Source: an uncultured Anaerolineales bacterium (GTDB lineage: Bacteria > Planctomycetota > Phycisphaerae > FEN-1346). Taken from it: a stretch of DNA of 64,000 bases. A model generated the notes under the pieces. That model was not told the origin of the DNA, did no database searches, and saw nothing but the letters and a program-made list of their open reading frames with translations. Positions within the stretch are counted from its first letter, which is position 1, and every line of letters begins with the position of its first letter. The translations under genes and the position numbers were made by a program. Shown piece after piece: positions 51,514 through 60,431 of the stretch. The DNA lies in the NCBI GenBank assembly GCA_964577175.1, contig CAZNYC010000001.1, positions 14,851-78,850 of the forward strand. The letters are read 5' to 3'.

Positions 51514-53499
51514 CTACTGCTGCCTTCCCTCGATGAGGGTATCCACGATGGTGGGATCCGCCAGCGTACTCGTATCGCCCAGGGTGCCCTTGTCGGTGAC
51601 GCCCTCGGCGATCTTGCGGAGGATCCGCCGCATGATCTTGCCGGAGCGCGTCTTCGGCAGCGCCGGGGCGAACTGGAGCCGGTCGGGCGTCGCGATCGGG
51701 CCGATCTCCTTCCGCACGTGCTTCACGAGTTCGTCTCGCAACTCGTCGGACGGCTCCACGCTCTCGACCAGCGTCACGAAGGCGTAGAGGCCCTGCCCCT
51801 TGATGTCGTGCGGCATGGGGGCGACGGCGGCCTCGGCCACCTTGTCGTGGCTCACCAGGGCGCTCTCGACCTCGGCCGTTCCGATCCGGTGACCGGACAC
51901 GTTCACGACGTCGTCGATGCGGCCCATGAGCCAGTAGTCGCCGTCCTCGTCGATGCGGCAGCCGTCGCCGGTGAAGTACAGATCATTATACATGTTGAAG
52001 TAGACGTCGATGAAGCGGTCGTGGTCGCCCCAGGTGGTCCGCATCATGGAAGGCCAGGGCTTCTTGATGCACAGTTTGCCGCCCTCGTTCACGTCGCACT
52101 CGGTGCCGTCGTCGCGCAGGACGATGGGCTCGACGCCGAAGAACGGCCGGTTGGCGCTGCCGGGCTTCAGGGTATGGGCACCGGGGAGCGGCGTGATGAG
52201 GATGCCGCCCGTCTCCGTCTGCCACCAGGTATCGACGATGGGCCGCTGGCCCTTGCCCACCTTCTCGTAGTACCACATCCACGCCTCGGGGTTGATGGGT
52301 TCGCCCACGGAGCCGAGGACGCGGAGGCTCGACATGTCGTACTTGGCCGGCCACTGGTCGCCCTGGCGGATGAGGGCACGGATCGCCGTCGGCGCCGTGT
52401 AGAACTGGGTGACCTTGAACTTGTCGATCATCTGCCAGTACCGGCCGGCGTCCGGGTAGAGGGGCGTGGACTCGAACATGACGCTCGTGGCCCCGTTGGC
52501 CAGCGGGCCGTACACGATGTAACTGTGGCCGGTAACCCACCCGATGTCCGCCGCACAGCAATAGACGTCCTCTTCCTTGACGTCAAAGATGAGTTTATGC
52601 GTCATCGCCGTGTACAGCAGGTACCCGCCGGTCGTATGGACGACGCCCTTCGGCTTGCCGGTGGACCCGGAGGTATAGAGGATGTAGAGGGTGTCCTCGG
52701 CATTCATCGCCTCGGCTTCGCAGTCGGCGGAGGCGTCGGCCATGACGGCGTCGTAGGCGAGGTCGCGGCCGTCCTGCATCGGGGCGTCTTCGTCGGTCCG
52801 ACCGACCACGATCACCTTTTCGATCGAGGGCGTCTGCTCGAGCGCCTCGTCGGCTATTTTTTTCAGTGGGATGCTCTTCCCCGCACGGCGCGACACGTTC
52901 GCCGTGATCAGGACCTTGCAGTCGGAGTCGTTGATGCGGTCGCGCAGGGCATCGGCGCTGAAGCCGCCGAACACCACCGAGTGGATGGCACCGATCCGCG
53001 TGCAGGCCAGCATGACGACCGGCAGTTCCGGAACCATGCCCAGGTACACGCACACGCGGTCGCCCTTCTCCACGCCGAGCGACTTCAGGACGTTGGCGAA
53101 CTTGCAGACCTCTTCGTGGAGTTCCTTGTACGTGATGGTCTTGTCTTCGTCGGGCTCGTCGCCCTGCCAGATGAGGGCGGCCTTGTTCTCGCGCTCCGTC
53201 CCCAGATGCCGGTCCAGACAGTTGTACGACACGTTCAGTTCGCCGTCGGCGAACCACGTATGGGAGACGTTGCGGCCTTCGGTGTCCCACGTGTACTGGC
53301 GGGCCTTGGTCGGCTTCTTAAACCAGTCGAGCATCTCGGCCTGTTCGAGCCAGAAGGCGTCCGGGTCGTTGATCGACCGGTCGTACATCTCCTGGTACTC
53401 GTCAAAGGACCCGATGTACGCCTTCTCCGCGATGTCGGCCGGCGGCGGGAACGTCCGCTTCTCCGACATGAACGATTCCATCCCTTTGTCTTGAGCCAT
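51514..53499 (-). CDS. acs: Acetyl-CoA synthetase (AMP-forming)
   Basis: 661 aa. Canonical Acs N-terminus ([34 protein letters not shown]) and AMP-binding motifs ([11 protein letters not shown]). ATG at 53499 with AAAGGAG upstream; the ATG 10 codons downstream (MSEK) is also possible. Confidence 0.85.
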
Positions 53500-53635
53500 C
53501 GCCTGCCCGCTCCTTTCTGGGTTCGCTTCGGTTCGTCCGTCTACGGGTTACACGCTCACCATCCGCATGGCGCAGTGGCACCACGCGACATCAGCATGGG
53601 GCTGGGTATTCTGGTCGGTGCCGGGAAGGGTGTCA

Positions 53636-53668
53636 AACAAAAAACCCGCCGGCGCCGGGCGGCGCGCG
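53636..53668 (-). terminator. Rho-independent terminator after the kinase-isochorismatase pair (minus strand); overlaps a candidate acs promoter -35 (TTGACA at 53636-53631)
   Basis: On the minus strand a GC-rich palindrome (cgcccggcgccggcggg) is followed by TTTTTTGTTTGACA. Downstream, TTGACA-N17-CAGAAT precedes acs. Confidence 0.4.
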
Positions 53669-58490: not shown

Positions 58491-58553
58491 GGCACCGGCG
58501 CCACATTGAGCCGCCGGGCTTGCCCGGCGCGTGCCGTAAGCAAGGGACTTCCC

Positions 58554-60431
58554 ATGGCCGAATTCAACTGGCAGGACAAATACGGCGACCGCATCGGCAC
58601 CGCCCCCGAGGCGATGAAACTCGTCCAGGCCGGCAGCAGCGTCTTCATCGGCTCCGCCTGCGGACAGCCGCAGCACCTCGTGAACGCCCTGGTCGAGCAC
58701 GGCAAGCACATCACCGACGCCCACATCATCCACCTGCTGACGATGGGGTCGGCGCCGTACGCTGACGAGCGGTTCCGCGGCAAGTTCAAACTGAACTCGC
58801 TGTTCGTCGCGGACAACGTCCGCCACGCCCTGGATAAGGGCATCGGCGACTACACGCCGATCTTCCTGTCGGACATCCCGCGCGAGTTCGAGTCGGGACG
58901 CATCCCCATCGACGTGGCCCTGATCAGCGTCTCCCCGCCCGACGCGAACGGCCTGTGCAGCCTGGGCGTGAGCGTGGACATCGTCAAGCCCGCCGCCGCC
59001 AACGCCCGGTACGTCATCGCCCAGGTCAATGCCCACATGCCTCGCACCCTGGGCGACTCCTTTCTCCATGTGAACCAGATCGACATGATGGTGCCCCACG
59101 ACGAGCCGGTCGTCACCGTGCCCATCCGGGAGCCCGACGACACGCTGCGGCGCATCGGGGAGAACATCGCGCGGCTGGTGGACGACGGCAGCACGATCGA
59201 GTGCGGCATCGGCAGCATCCCGCAGGCCCTGGCCGAGTTCCTCCGCGACAAGAAGGAACTGGGCGTCCACACCGAGATGTTCAGCGACTGGATCATCGAC
59301 CTCGTCGAGTGCGGCGCCATCACGTGCACGAAGAAGAACATCAACCACGGCAAGGTCATCGCCAGTTTCTGCATGGGCTCGCAGCGGCTGTACGATTACG
59401 TGGACAACAATCCATTCTTCGAGTTCCATCCGACCCAGTACGTGAACGACCCGTACGTCATCAGCCAGCACGACAAGATGATCGGCATCAACGTGGGGCT
59501 GGAGATCGACCTGACGGGCCAGGTATGCTCCGACTCGCTCGGGTACCGGTTCTACAGCGGCATCGGCGGGCAGGTGGACTTCATCCGCGGCGCCGCCCGC
59601 AGCCGCGAGGGCAAGCCCATCATCGCCATGCCCTCCACCGCCAAGGGCGGCGAGGTGTCGCGCATCGTCCCGCACCTCACCGAAGGCGCCGGCGTCGTCA
59701 CGACCCGCGGCGACGTGCACTACGTGGTCACCGAGTACGGCATCGCGTACCTGCACGGCAAGAGCATCCGGGAGCGGGTGCTCTCGCTCATCAACATCGC
59801 GCACCCGAAATTCCGCAACGACCTCATCCAGTTCGCCAAGCAGCAGATGTACCTGCCCGAGGACCAGGTGGAACTGGCGTGGGAACAGATCCGGTACCCC
59901 GAGGAACTCGAGAAGTACGACACGCTTCGCGACGGCACGCAGGTGTTCTTCCGCCCCATCAAGCCGGCGGACGAACCCGCCCTGGCCGAGATGCTCTACT
60001 CCCTGAGCACCGAGTCGGTGCGGTCGCGGTTCTTCACGGCCACCGTCCGGTTTCCCCACAAGGACGTGCAGAAACTCACGAATATCGATTACAAGAACGA
60101 ACTGGCGATCGTGGGCGTCGTGCCGGGGCCGGGCGAGGAGGAGATCGTCGCCATCGCCCAGTACTTCCTGGACCCGAAGACGGGCGAGGCCGAGATCGCC
60201 TTCATCGTCCAGGACGAATGGCAGAAGAAGGGCATGGGCTCGCTGCTGCTGGACTACCTCGTGCAGACCGCCCGGCAGCGGGGCGTCCGGCGGTTCCGGG
60301 CCCGCGTCCTGCCAAGCAACAAGGCCATGCTCGCCGTCTTCTACAACAGCGGATACCACGTCGAGTCGGATTACGACGGCGAGGCGTACAACCTCGCGAT
60401 GAACCTGGAGCCGCCGAACCGGAAGGGGTGA
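58554..60431 (+). CDS. Acetyl-CoA hydrolase/CoA-transferase family protein fused to a C-terminal GNAT acetyltransferase domain
   Basis: N- and C-terminal AcetylCoA_hydro domains (VFIGSACGQPQHLVNAL; GIGGQVDFIRGA), then a ~150-aa GNAT (acetyl-CoA binding QKKGMGSLLL, RQRGVRRFRARVLPSN). Confidence 0.7.
   Translation: MAEFNWQDKYGDRIGTAPEAMKLVQAGSSVFIGSACGQPQHLVNALVEHGKHITDAHIIHLLTMGSAPYADERFRGKFKLNSLFVADNVRHALDKGIGDYTPIFLSDIPREFESGRIPIDVALISVSPPDANGLCSLGVSVDIVKPAAANARYVIAQVNAHMPRTLGDSFLHVNQIDMMVPHDEPVVTVPIREPDDTLRRIGENIARLVDDGSTIECGIGSIPQALAEFLRDKKELGVHTEMFSDWIIDLVECGAITCTKKNINHGKVIASFCMGSQRLYDYVDNNPFFEFHPTQYVNDPYVISQHDKMIGINVGLEIDLTGQVCSDSLGYRFYSGIGGQVDFIRGAARSREGKPIIAMPSTAKGGEVSRIVPHLTEGAGVVTTRGDVHYVVTEYGIAYLHGKSIRERVLSLINIAHPKFRNDLIQFAKQQMYLPEDQVELAWEQIRYPEELEKYDTLRDGTQVFFRPIKPADEPALAEMLYSLSTESVRSRFFTATVRFPHKDVQKLTNIDYKNELAIVGVVPGPGEEEIVAIAQYFLDPKTGEAEIAFIVQDEWQKKGMGSLLLDYLVQTARQRGVRRFRARVLPSNKAMLAVFYNSGYHVESDYDGEAYNLAMNLEPPNRKG

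Follow-up and report, generated by a model that had tools for sequence, protein, structure and literature searches.

Gene Content of the Locus

The window, i.e., the whole 64-kb stretch of DNA analysed (approximately 70% GC), contains at positions 51514–60431 a cluster that brings together two opposing acetate/acetyl-CoA enzymes, a protein deacetylase and a fusion of a CoA-transferase with a Pat-type acetyltransferase. All six ORFs of the initial annotation were recovered with their coordinates and domains, apart from the PncA label of one hydrolase and the start of the fusion gene, and their third-position GC of 0.89–0.96 is typical of genuine genes. The clustering is not due to chance, because the same genes remain linked in 80 related genomes despite rearrangements.

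On the minus strand, acs (51514–53499) encodes an AMP-forming Acs of 661 aa that scores above the cut-offs of NF001208 (1035 bits vs. 657) and TIGR02188 (995 bits vs. 725) and is matched by the S. enterica Acs 2p2f at 820 bits. The proposal of Acs as an acetylation target presupposed an acetylatable lysine, and Lys621 indeed aligns with K609 of the S. enterica enzyme within an identical surrounding motif; this is, however, a weak and non-discriminating test, since to our knowledge practically every AMP-forming ligase has this residue. Downstream of acs lies the gene of an MFS monocarboxylate transporter (50120–51409, minus strand), with 383 bits to the SfMCT-type L-lactate transporter model NF049980 (cut-off 320), which probably serves acetate/lactate uptake and is paired with Acs in 22 of 36 loci.

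The same strand carries two accessory genes. The product of 53796–54332 (178 aa) is an isochorismatase-family hydrolase (PF00857, 127 bits), whose best PDB matches are 8rkz, MAR1 (2b34) and YcaC; its earlier description as PncA-like had to be abandoned, as its score is 24 bits with the nicotinamidase model NF008623 (cut-off 174) and 41 bits with a nicotinamidase structure. Its gene, found in 6/36 loci, is separated from acs by a terminator-like hairpin (53664–53646) and a promoter-like site (53636–53608). The gene at 54334–55011 (225 aa) encodes a P-loop protein, a divergent adenylate-kinase-like NMP kinase (PF00406, 40.6 bits vs. 26.8), with adenylate kinases as the best PDB matches and as the proteins to which its GRxDD...RL..Y...T.PL..YY motif aligns; found in 4/36 loci, it lies outside the conserved core.

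A divergent promoter region separates the kinase-like gene from the plus-strand operon, in which the genes follow in the order HDAC, ADP-forming acyl-CoA synthetase (ACD) and fusion, with acs lying two genes beyond this region on the other side. The first gene (55221–56357, 378 aa) encodes a class I HDAC-like, AcuC-like Zn-dependent lysine deacetylase (PF00850, 262 bits), matched best in the PDB by RPD3 and HDAC8 (about 220 bits), with the motifs GGYHHA, DVDVHHGDG, GxDxxxGDPL and GGGGY visible in the alignment; one cluster member carries the JGI name 'acetoin utilization protein AcuC'. Thus, the AcuC assignment stands, and the deacetylase shares an operon with the ACD and the fusion, the ACD start being spaced 3 nt from the HDAC gene.

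The second gene (56361–58490) encodes a 709-aa ACD of the fused alpha-beta type with all five ACD subdomains (Pfam CoA_binding_2, Succ_CoA_lig, Ligase_CoA_2 and ATP-grasp_5), the best PDB match of which is the ADP-forming 4-hydroxybutyrate-CoA ligase 8wzu (500 bits), compared with 340 bits for PatZ. The initial annotation regarded it as the stand-alone ACD-like domain of a 'split Pat'. However, the Pat domain is defined by the loss of the catalytic histidine, H254 of ACD1 corresponding to L245 in PatZ, whereas the phosphohistidine loop of the window protein is intact (His260 in AASSHTGRLAG), and an equivalent His occurs in all 80 partner ACDs whose alignment covers the position, as well as in seven partners from other phyla. 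Because of this retention, the protein is predicted to be a catalytically competent ACD and not a detached regulatory domain of Pat, although it could yet interact directly with the fusion, as their adjacency is conserved across phyla.

The CoA-Transferase–GNAT Fusion Protein

The last gene of the operon occupies an ORF at 58506–60431, whose first codon was rejected as the start in favour of ATG 58554, since the homologues begin at the equivalent Met and an identical 625-aa protein is on record. The proposed joining of a GNAT to a CoA-transferase is borne out by matches to PF02550, PF13336 and PF00583 within this one protein, each above the Pfam cut-off.

Residues 1–440 constitute a family I CoA-transferase of the 4-hydroxybutyrate (4HB)/butyryl-CoA:acetate type, with the catalytic Glu241, which in the alignment corresponds to the HSEM Glu in AbfT (3GK7), and the motif GGQVDF at 338–343. 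The 4HB CoA-transferase 9vag matches this part at 448 bits (E 5e-133), and Foldseek relates it to 3GK7/RipA at a TMt of about 0.8. With 284 bits, it falls short of the TIGR03948 cut-off (675). As a family I CoA-transferase, the domain would bind acetate along with acetyl-CoA or a different acyl-CoA, and form a covalent glutamyl-CoA intermediate.

Residues 447–620 are a GNAT, in agreement with the initial annotation, and specifically one of the Pat type, as seen from PF00583 and from the NCBIfam mycobacterial Pat model (7e-25). The PDB comparison gave 5.6e-25 for residues 709–880 of PatZ (9it0), and the best matches were PatZ (94.8 bits, residues 710–880), the S. lividans Pat GNAT (86.7 bits) and mycobacterial Pat, with 87–95 bits for Pat against about 20 bits for the RimI models. 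Glu547 aligns with the catalytic E809 of PatZ, and the acetyl-CoA loop Q557-x-x-G560-x-G562 and the Pat-specific N-terminal extension YPEELE..FRPIKPADEP are present. Foldseek matches this part to the S. lividans Pat GNAT (TMt 0.76–0.80). The AF2 model, of only moderate quality (pLDDT 72), is uninformative on communication between the domains. A rough NJ tree groups the fusion GNATs in a separate clade next to those of type I and type II Pat.

The catalytic residues of both domains are invariant in 58 close homologues, and across the mainstream family the GGQxDF motif is retained, as is Glu241 in 116 of 118 sequences. In divergent lineages, some with a decayed CoA-transferase active site, Glu241 occurs in 17/31 sequences and the GNAT Glu/Asp in 30/31. 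The GNAT motifs outlast the CoA-transferase site, as one would expect of a protein in which acetyl transfer is the constant role and, as in Pat, the fused domain is accessory. By this analogy, the CoA-transferase domain is likely an acyl-CoA-reading (sensing) module; its fully intact active site, however, argues that it does metabolic work of its own.

Family Breadth and Conserved Synteny

The fusion proteins form a large, widespread, multi-phylum family that is uncharacterised and has no name. Therefore, the arrangement is not a variant peculiar to the window, while the term 'undescribed' still applies, in that no description of the CoA-transferase–GNAT architecture was found in the literature searched.

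The ACD gene directly adjoins the fusion gene, on its upstream side, in 67/70 Phycisphaerae loci, and does so in either gene order in 8/10 contexts from other phyla, although the Phycisphaerae loci owe part of their shared gene order to common descent and do not amount to 80 independent observations. The gap between the two has a median of 10 nt (66 of 81 gaps are overlaps or ≤30 nt), and their start and stop codons often overlap. The HDAC gene stands on the same strand beside this pair, upstream or downstream, in 50/55 Phycisphaerae loci, and Acs lies less than 10 kb from the fusion in 29 of the 36 with enough flanking sequence. The ACD–fusion pairing recurs in Deltaproteobacteria, Polyangia, Verrucomicrobiota, Hydrogenedentes and other contexts outside Phycisphaerae; in a deltaproteobacterial and a Polyangia locus, the cassette is flanked by Acs-like P-x4-G-K proteins and an Ack-Pta fusion. 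No Acs and no HDAC occurred within 8 kb of five cassettes from other phyla (L083, L086, L090, L092 and L093), and two fusion lineages (L084/85 and L088/89) have no ACD neighbour. In one fusion protein (P0179), the CoA-transferase Glu is replaced by Ala, yet an ACD retaining the HTG motif is encoded 3 nt upstream. Thus, the most conserved linkage is that of the fusion with the ACD and not with Acs, so that the primary partner or target could be the ACD itself.

Proposed Function and Alternative Readings

The sequences themselves establish the domain identities, catalytic residues, conserved synteny and family breadth, and on these a function can be proposed. The reading we favour, with about an even chance, is that the cluster is an acetate/acetyl-CoA switch acting through reversible lysine acetylation of Acs and tied to ACD expression; that Acs is the substrate, in which direction regulation runs and that the CoA-transferase senses are all inferred from sequence. 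The ACD would catalyse acetyl-CoA + ADP + Pi <-> acetate + ATP + CoA, and the fusion would be a Pat-type lysine acetyltransferase, in which an intact CoA-transferase occupies the place of the dead ACD-like domain of classical Pat. The GNAT would acetylate Lys621 of the nearby Acs and block its adenylation step, whereas the Zn-dependent deacetylase would remove the mark and turn Acs on again; with the writer and the eraser co-transcribed, it would have to be metabolites that determine the acetylation level. The acyl-CoA/acid state would be read by the CoA-transferase domain, which may in addition be a local source or sink of acetyl-CoA. In such a way, expression of the ATP-yielding ACD route would shut the ATP-consuming Acs route; without the switch, ACD and Acs together with pyrophosphatase and adenylate kinase would result in net ATP hydrolysis, and the switch, if true, prevents this wasteful ACD/Acs cycle.

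The tight ACD–fusion adjacency, with its frequent start/stop overlaps, may also reflect a stable complex working in trans as a Pat holoenzyme, a sharper version of the 'split Pat' of the initial annotation, with the ACD being both an enzyme and a PatZ-like part that binds acetyl-CoA, cooperatively activates the GNAT and contributes to the form of the substrate pocket. In type I and type II Pat, GNATs of this type carry an ACD-fold domain in cis, without which they neither work nor bind Acs; in the alignment, residues 6–691 of PatZ span the full length of the window ACD, and the adjacency survives the decay of the CoA-transferase active site in P0179. Such a complex appears rather unlikely, however, as the catalytic His kept in every ACD tested points to selection as an enzyme, pathway-level coupling accounts for the adjacency equally well, and the two lineages named above have the fusion without an ACD neighbour. 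The ACD, or the CoA-transferase domain, may instead be the substrate of the GNAT, the cassette self-regulating the ATP-yielding acetate branch and Acs being a mere metabolic neighbour in Phycisphaerae. The ACD–fusion core without nearby Acs or HDAC in several phyla, the matched stoichiometry implied by tight translational coupling and the recorded autoacetylation of PatZ speak for it. Nevertheless, we regard it as improbable: AMP-forming acyl-CoA synthetases are the canonical substrate of every characterised Pat-type GNAT, the recurrent third partner is Acs or an Acs-like P-x4-G-K protein, and we know of no precedent for control of an ACD by acetylation.

The linkage could also be mainly metabolic, with the CoA-transferase (acyl-CoA + acetate -> acid + acetyl-CoA) and the ACD (acetyl-CoA + ADP + Pi -> acetate + ATP) forming an ASCT/SCS-like cycle that conserves ATP from various acyl-CoAs, and with the GNAT acetylating, for instance, a small molecule or a protein N-terminus instead of controlling Acs. 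This is consistent with the intact CoA-transferase site of the mainstream family, the strong match to 9vag and the established route to acetate and ATP in which a CoA-transferase is paired with an ADP-forming ligase, as in the SCACT/SCS of Cutibacterium (10.1101/2020.04.13.039867) and the ASCT/SCS of trypanosomatids (PMC12817287). As the sole explanation it has little probability, given that the GNAT is of the Pat type and not of the small-molecule/RimI type, that a protein deacetylase accompanies it in 50/55 loci, that the GNAT motifs outlive the CoA-transferase site and that the ACD adjacency survives the loss of the CoA-transferase Glu. The metabolic pairing itself is compatible with the Acs switch and may well hold alongside it.

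Comparison with Known Systems

The Acs switch would resemble the Pat/PatZ (YfiQ)–CobB system of S. enterica and E. coli (class I-alpha, type I KAT): the GNAT belongs to the same subfamily, with a shared catalytic Glu, acetyl-CoA loop and N-terminal extension, the presumed target motif in Acs is the same, the GNAT goes together with an ACD-fold protein, and it is preceded by a large acyl-CoA-binding module. However, the fused module is here a CoA-transferase with intact catalytic residues, in place of an ACD-like domain that lacks the His; the ACD is encoded separately and is, by its sequence, a competent enzyme; and the eraser is of the Zn-dependent HDAC type, while CobB is a sirtuin. In the acsA/acuABC region of B. 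subtilis, Acs likewise stands beside an operon co-transcribing the writer and an HDAC-type AcuC-like eraser, with the acs side on the opposite strand, although in the window acs is two genes away from the divergent promoter region. The acetyltransferase differs from the AcuA type in being a Pat-type GNAT joined to a CoA-transferase, the operon includes an ACD gene, and no AcuB (CBS/ACT) gene occurs within the 64-kb window. A CBS-pair gene precedes the fusion in the loci L084/L085.

An N-terminal accessory domain followed by a C-terminal Pat-type GNAT is also the design of the type III (class I-beta) KATs, such as the mycobacterial cAMP-Pat, actinobacterial ACT-GNAT and the NADP+-responding MxKat of Myxococcus, which usually act on Acs and whose accessory domain adjusts activity in response to a metabolite. 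In the window protein, this position is taken not by a small ligand-binding domain but by a 440-aa enzyme domain with a predicted covalent CoA intermediate, and reviews list three types of regulatory domain, none of which is a CoA-transferase. The AbfT/RipA group of 4HB/butyryl-CoA:acetate CoA-transferases (AcetylCoA_hydro + AcetylCoA_hyd_C) is homologous over its full length (385–448 bits to the solved 4HB enzymes), with the catalytic Glu in H-T/S-E-M, the GGQxDF motif and a similar predicted fold. However, the solved and characterised enzymes end at about 440–450 aa, none with a GNAT, and no single PDB chain spanned both parts in the Foldseek comparison. Finally, the ASCT/SCS (SCACT/SCS) systems similarly combine a family I CoA-transferase with an ADP-forming acyl-CoA ligase of the succinyl-CoA-synthetase superfamily, whereas the ligase is here of the ACD type and not a succinyl-CoA synthetase, and the transferase is of the 4HB/butyryl type and carries a protein acetyltransferase domain.

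Organization of the Gene Cluster

The initial annotation had listed for this region acs, an isochorismatase, a small kinase, a deacetylase, an acyl-CoA-synthetase-like protein and a CoA-transferase joined to a GNAT domain, and exactly those genes are present, all with the very high third-position GC content of real genes in a window of about 70% GC. [quoted passage not shown] The plus strand encodes a class I HDAC-like deacetylase (55221-56357), an ADP-forming acyl-CoA synthetase (ACD) of 709 aa (56361-58490) and the CoA-transferase-GNAT fusion of 625 aa, whose start at ATG 58554 corresponds to the Met that begins its homologues and to the exact 625-aa protein of an NCBI record. 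The HDAC stop and the ACD start are separated by 3 nt, and the ACD stop and the fusion start by 63 nt.

The name "PncA-like", given earlier to the isochorismatase, did not stand: NF008623, the nicotinamidase model, reached 24 bits where 174 are required, and MAR1/YcaC-type proteins lead the PDB matches, with only 41 bits over 83 residues for the nicotinamidase 1ilw. A sirtuin/nicotinamide logic for this gene was rejected on that score and also because the deacetylase is Zn-dependent and, therefore, produces no nicotinamide.

No known RNAs, including riboswitches, were found at E <= 0.1 in 48000-64000, and no CBS or ACT gene in 50000-62200. The promoter and terminator scan gave weak consensus matches, hints at most, among them one terminator-like hairpin and one promoter-like site in the gap separating acs from the isochorismatase gene, and another promoter-like site at 55183-55210 ahead of the HDAC gene. 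Convergent with the fusion gene, a Pif1/RecD-like SF1B helicase gene (60560-62113, minus strand) lies in a local GC dip (0.59 vs about 0.70) and may have been acquired horizontally.

Elsewhere in the window, a single ORF of 5765 aa (107-17404, plus strand; GC3 0.93) with FG-GAP, RTX calcium-binding, LRR, MAM-like, PKD and dockerin domains probably encodes an adhesin-like protein of giant size, secreted or at the cell surface. The 1046-aa product of 20298-23438 (plus strand) has an unusual three-part architecture of radical SAM, class I SAM methyltransferase and DUF5714, and the 1242-aa product of 44550-48278 (plus strand) has a cytochrome c motif, a LamG domain at its C-terminus and, in its middle, a hydrazine-synthase-alpha domain. 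An NQR/RNF-like gene run (38610-44129, minus strand) includes an NqrF-like Fer2/FAD/NAD protein, an RnfD/NqrB-family membrane subunit and a protein in which a 4Fe-4S dicluster accompanies the second domain of NqrA.

The CoA-Transferase-GNAT Fusion Protein

Residues 1-440 of the fusion form a CoA-transferase of family I, in the 4-hydroxybutyrate/butyryl-CoA:acetate group, with both Pfam halves above cut-off (PF02550, 94 bits against 24; PF13336, 228 against 23.7) and matches of 448 bits to the solved 4HB CoA-transferase 9vag and 385 bits to AbfT of C. aminobutyricum. Glu241, within HTEM, aligns with the Glu in HSEM of AbfT 3GK7, which we take to be the catalytic Glu238 (Macieira et al. 2009), and GGQVDF at 338-343 is likewise aligned to 3GK7; both are invariant across 58 homologues. 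The conserved family I catalytic Glu is represented in RipA by Glu249 (PMC3180442). Thus, the features of the 4HB-CoAT group of family I, namely both Pfam halves, the catalytic Glu and GGQxDF, are all found in the protein, and no equivalog model reaches its cut-off for this part (TIGR03948, 284 bits against 675).

Residues 447-620 belong to the Pat subfamily of GNAT, so that the GNAT nature of the C-terminal domain, proposed from the sequence at the outset, was borne out by the profile search, the catalytic Glu, the acetyl-CoA loop and the structural match together. This part aligns with PatZ residues 710-880 at 94.8 bits, with the GNAT of S. lividans Pat at 86.7 and with M. tuberculosis Pat at 55, and the mycobacterial Pat model of NCBIfam matches it at 7e-25. 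Glu547 aligns with the PatZ catalytic E809, the acetyl-CoA loop Q557-K-K-G560-M-G562 fits the Q/R-x-x-G-x-G/A rule, and the Pat-specific segment ahead of the GNAT core is kept (YPEELE...FRPIKPADEP vs YPHQLE...FRPILPEDEP in PatZ).

The AF2 model of the fusion is moderate (pLDDT 72, poor at residues 314-407) and uninformative on the inter-domain geometry, and it is good enough to confirm both predicted folds: the N-terminal part matches 4HB-CoAT/RipA structures (TMt about 0.8) and the C-terminal part the S. lividans Pat GNAT (TMt 0.76-0.80), one of whose entries is a complex with the C-terminal domain of Acs. Among the structure matches there was no PDB chain spanning both parts, and among the NCBIfam models none spanning the whole fusion.

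The two active sites differ in their conservation. Glu241 is kept in 116 of the 118 mainstream family members (49-74% identity to the window protein), and the family also retains GGQxDF. Among 31 more diverse cluster representatives, which are metagenomic and less certain in alignment, Glu241 persists in only 17 and gives way to Asp in 7 and to other residues in 7, and 11 retain the Gln of GGQ, whereas 30 retain the Glu/Asp of the GNAT and 29-31 the Q/R and Gly positions of the acetyl-CoA loop. This decay of the CoA-transferase site beside a kept GNAT site points to the acetyltransferase as the predicted constant function, with CoA-transferase catalysis dispensable in some lineages, in parallel with the dead ACD-like domain of Pat.

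The ADP-Forming Acyl-CoA Synthetase

The ACD is matched by CoA_binding_2, Succ_CoA_lig, Ligase_CoA_2 and ATP-grasp_5, with the five-subdomain architecture complete. Over its whole length it can be aligned to PatZ residues 6-691 (340 bits), but the agreement is better with genuine ADP-forming ligases, such as 8wzu (500 bits), and gives 336 bits with the alpha subunit and 170 bits with the beta subunit of ACD1. With TIGR02717 (acetate-CoA ligase alpha) the protein reaches 545 bits, slightly short of the cut-off of 567, and with the 4-hydroxybutyrate-CoA ligase model 605 bits against 1300. The catalytic His sets a real ACD apart from the Pat regulatory domain, with H254 of ACD1 being L245 in PatZ, a change that abolishes ACD chemistry. 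In the window protein, His260 lies in AASSH260TGRLAG, the counterpart in the alignment of AMSHTGALMG in 8wzu, and the catalytic His is found in all 80 alignments of partner ACDs (those encoded next to the fusion gene in relatives) that cover the position, as well as in seven partners from other phyla. The retained His argues that the ACD is a working enzyme, as judged by sequence, and rules out its being a dead Pat-like domain.

Acs and the Deacetylase

The identity of Acs is at the equivalog level (TIGR02188, 995 bits against 725), with 820 bits to the S. enterica Acs 2p2f. An acetylatable Lys had been expected in Acs, and Lys621, within PKTRSGK, aligns with K609 of the S. enterica enzyme in an identical motif of 18 residues (not shown). 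To our knowledge, this Lys is nearly universal in its enzyme family, so that its presence is weak, though necessary, evidence for acetylation. The HDAC-like protein (PF00850, 262 bits) carries the class I catalytic motifs GGYHHA, DVDVHHGDG, GxDxxxGDPL and GGGGY, and a member of its cluster is named AcuC by JGI.

Conservation of the Neighbourhood

The surroundings of the fusion gene were compared in 80 genome loci with a fusion at 73-95% identity, all of them MAGs, labelled mostly Phycisphaerae, Sedimentisphaerales, Pirellulales and Planctomycetota, with a few bins of Anaerolineales, Verrucomicrobiota and others; the nearest, a Phycisphaerae MAG, has an identical gene order and a 95% identical fusion. 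Counting only the loci with enough flanking sequence, the ACD gene is directly upstream of the fusion gene on the same strand in 67 of 70, the HDAC gene adjoins the pair on the same strand in 50 of 55 (41 downstream and 9 upstream, as in the window), Acs is encoded within about 10 kb in 29 of 36 and an MFS transporter nearby in 22 of 36, while the isochorismatase (6 of 36) and the kinase-like gene (4 of 36) are accessories of the window's own sub-lineage. Thus, the core consists of ACD, fusion and HDAC, usually with Acs and the transporter nearby. The ACD stop precedes the fusion start by a median of 10 nt, and in 66 of 81 cases the two genes overlap or lie no more than 30 nt apart. Chance clustering was dismissed, since the linkage survives the rearrangement of the HDAC gene and recurs in other phyla.

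In four of these loci (L012, L016, L047 and L057), a second ACD paralogue precedes the partner ACD by about 2 kb; another, at L083 (1707-3785), adjoins BcrAD/HGD-D-type dehydratase-activator genes, and these paralogues are 58-61% identical to the window ACD.

Distribution and Contexts in Other Phyla

When the GNAT region was searched against 1.84 billion cluster representatives, the best 150 clusters at 50% identity comprised 61 CoA-transferase-GNAT, 21 GNAT-ACD (type II Pat) and 7 ACD-GNAT (type I Pat) architectures, the remainder being fragments or proteins with the GNAT alone. For thirty full-length representatives of the fusion, identity to the window protein is 30-55%. In a neighbour-joining tree of the GNAT domains, which is rough and without support values, 55 of 60 fusion GNATs form one clade apart from type I/II Pat. 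The full-length homologues with this architecture number thousands, in at least hundreds of distinct sequence clusters, by which an assembly or frameshift artefact was excluded. By source names, the family occurs in Planctomycetota, Verrucomicrobiota, Lentisphaerae, Hydrogenedentes, Calditrichaeota, WOR-3, Latescibacteria, Myxococcota/Deltaproteobacteria and Polyangia, mostly uncultured anaerobes. Its database names are generic only ("GNAT family N-acetyltransferase" or "acyl-CoA hydrolase"), and the genes are currently read as plain "4-hydroxybutyrate CoA-transferase" or plain "GNAT".

Several members of the representative protein library differ in architecture. P0152 (625 aa) is a direct fusion of the GNAT with an ACD-alpha-like domain whose AAASHTGSLAG loop is intact; this protein is the only candidate for the single ACD-GNAT leaf within the CoA-transferase-GNAT clade of the rough tree, and may be a live-ACD/GNAT fusion intermediate or else a truncated gene call. 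P0234 and P0266 (960-967 aa) have about 330 extra residues ahead of the CoA-transferase domain, and P0197 (965 aa) has about 420 past the GNAT domain.

Among the loci of other phyla, one tight operon of a Deltaproteobacteria MAG (L081, 1765-9872) encodes an Ack-Pta fusion (759 aa), a divergent Acs-like ligase (616 aa, with PYSRTGK), an ACD and a CoA-transferase-GNAT protein, and all known acetate/acetyl-CoA routes are thereby within one transcription unit. In the Polyangia locus L082, the ACD gene overlaps the fusion gene by 8 nt, with an Acs-like ligase and an Ack-Pta fusion encoded nearby on the opposite strand; the Acs-like proteins of both loci have P-x4-G-K motifs followed by LLRSVLRR. 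Plain ACD-fusion pairs are found at L083, L086 (in reversed order), L087, L090/91, L092 (Hydrogenedentes) and L093 (Verrucomicrobiae).

Two fusion lineages are without an ACD neighbour. In one, a gene for a 231-aa CBS-pair protein (L084, 7189-7884; L085, 92-787), recalling AcuB of the Bacillus acu operon, lies directly upstream of a 651-aa fusion. In the other, from Calditrichaeota (L088, 5504-6415; L089, 1280-2191), the place of the ACD about 20 nt upstream is taken by a gene for a 303-aa universal stress protein, which may be a different target of the same acetyltransferase family, because a universal stress protein was the first known substrate of mycobacterial Pat.

Proposed Mechanism and Alternatives

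The best-supported reading of the cluster, for and against which the chances are evenly balanced, is an acetate switch by reversible acetylation of Acs. The ACD would gain ATP from acetyl-CoA, and Acs would spend it (to AMP and PPi) on acetyl-CoA synthesis; ACD, Acs, pyrophosphatase and adenylate kinase together amount, by stoichiometry, to futile ATP hydrolysis. The Pat-type acetyltransferase, translated together with the ACD, would silence Acs at Lys621, and the HDAC would remove the acetyl mark; with writer and eraser in one operon, the balance would, therefore, be set by metabolites. The CoA-transferase domain, which stands where PatZ has its acetyl-CoA-sensing regulatory domain, would bind acetyl-CoA or another acyl-CoA and acetate and is the putative sensor. 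The mechanism of family I CoA-transferases proceeds through a covalent glutamyl-CoA intermediate (PMC3180442). The analysis establishes which domains are present, their catalytic residues, the synteny and the breadth of the family, while the choice of Acs as substrate, the direction of control and the sensing by the CoA-transferase domain are inferred from these.

The adjacency of ACD and fusion genes across phyla outlasts the decay of the CoA-transferase site, as at the fusion P0179, where the catalytic Glu is replaced by Ala and an ACD with an intact HTG loop is encoded 3 nt upstream, the sole degenerate member placed on a contig (n=1). This speaks for a sharpened form of the "split Pat" arrangement initially proposed, with the ACD as a regulatory subunit in trans, an explanation that we consider rather unlikely on the whole. 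Also doubtful is a bolder reading, in which the cassettes of ACD and fusion make up a sixth, widespread class of bacterial lysine acetyltransferase (KAT) systems, with the live CoA-transferase gating acetylation by its covalent CoA-loading state, i.e., the acyl-CoA/acid ratio, in a complex with the live ACD; the cassette would then show, still unfused, the ancestral arrangement that gave rise to the dead ACD-like domain of Pat. That the acetylation target is instead the ACD or the fusion itself seems improbable, and little probability is given to a mainly metabolic pairing of ACD and CoA-transferase, as in ASCT/SCS; such a metabolic pairing may well hold alongside the acetate switch.

If the acetate-switch model holds, it would be a new coupling of acetyl-CoA chemistry to post-translational control and would explain how fermenters possessing both ACD and Acs avoid burning ATP in a futile cycle. 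The old question of why Pat carries a dead ACD-like domain could then be approached, in a testable way, through the conserved partnership between live ACD and Pat-type GNAT, and the metabolic reconstructions of the abundant Phycisphaerae of sediments and digesters would be improved.

Comparison with Known Systems

In its working, the proposed switch is likened to the Pat/CobB-Acs and AcsA/AcuABC systems, but by its components it belongs to neither. With type I/II Pat, the fusion shares the Pat-subfamily GNAT, the catalytic Glu and the acetyl-CoA loop; however, these enzymes have a His-less ACD-like domain in cis, whereas the fusion has a CoA-transferase, and the ACD is a separate protein with His260, so that the fusion is not a type I/II Pat. 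Of the putative Pat-like acetylation of Acs, the elements observed here are the target motif around Lys621 and the gene linkage. [quoted passage not shown] As in the AcuABC system of B. subtilis, an AcuC-type deacetylase, recognized by Pfam and the HDAC motifs, is encoded with the acetyltransferase. However, the stand-alone GNAT AcuA and the CBS/ACT protein AcuB are both absent from the cluster, where the GNAT is Pat-type and fused, and the system is, therefore, not Acu.

The five KAT types of bacterial protein acetyltransferases include no CoA-transferase module in the reviews and the 2025 PatZ structure paper, and no description of a CoA-transferase-GNAT protein was found in openly searchable full text, a scope outside which the subscription-only papers fall. 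Beside these known systems, the fusion with its ACD is a real, conserved and widespread architecture, whose function would be the acetyl-CoA-linked control proposed here.
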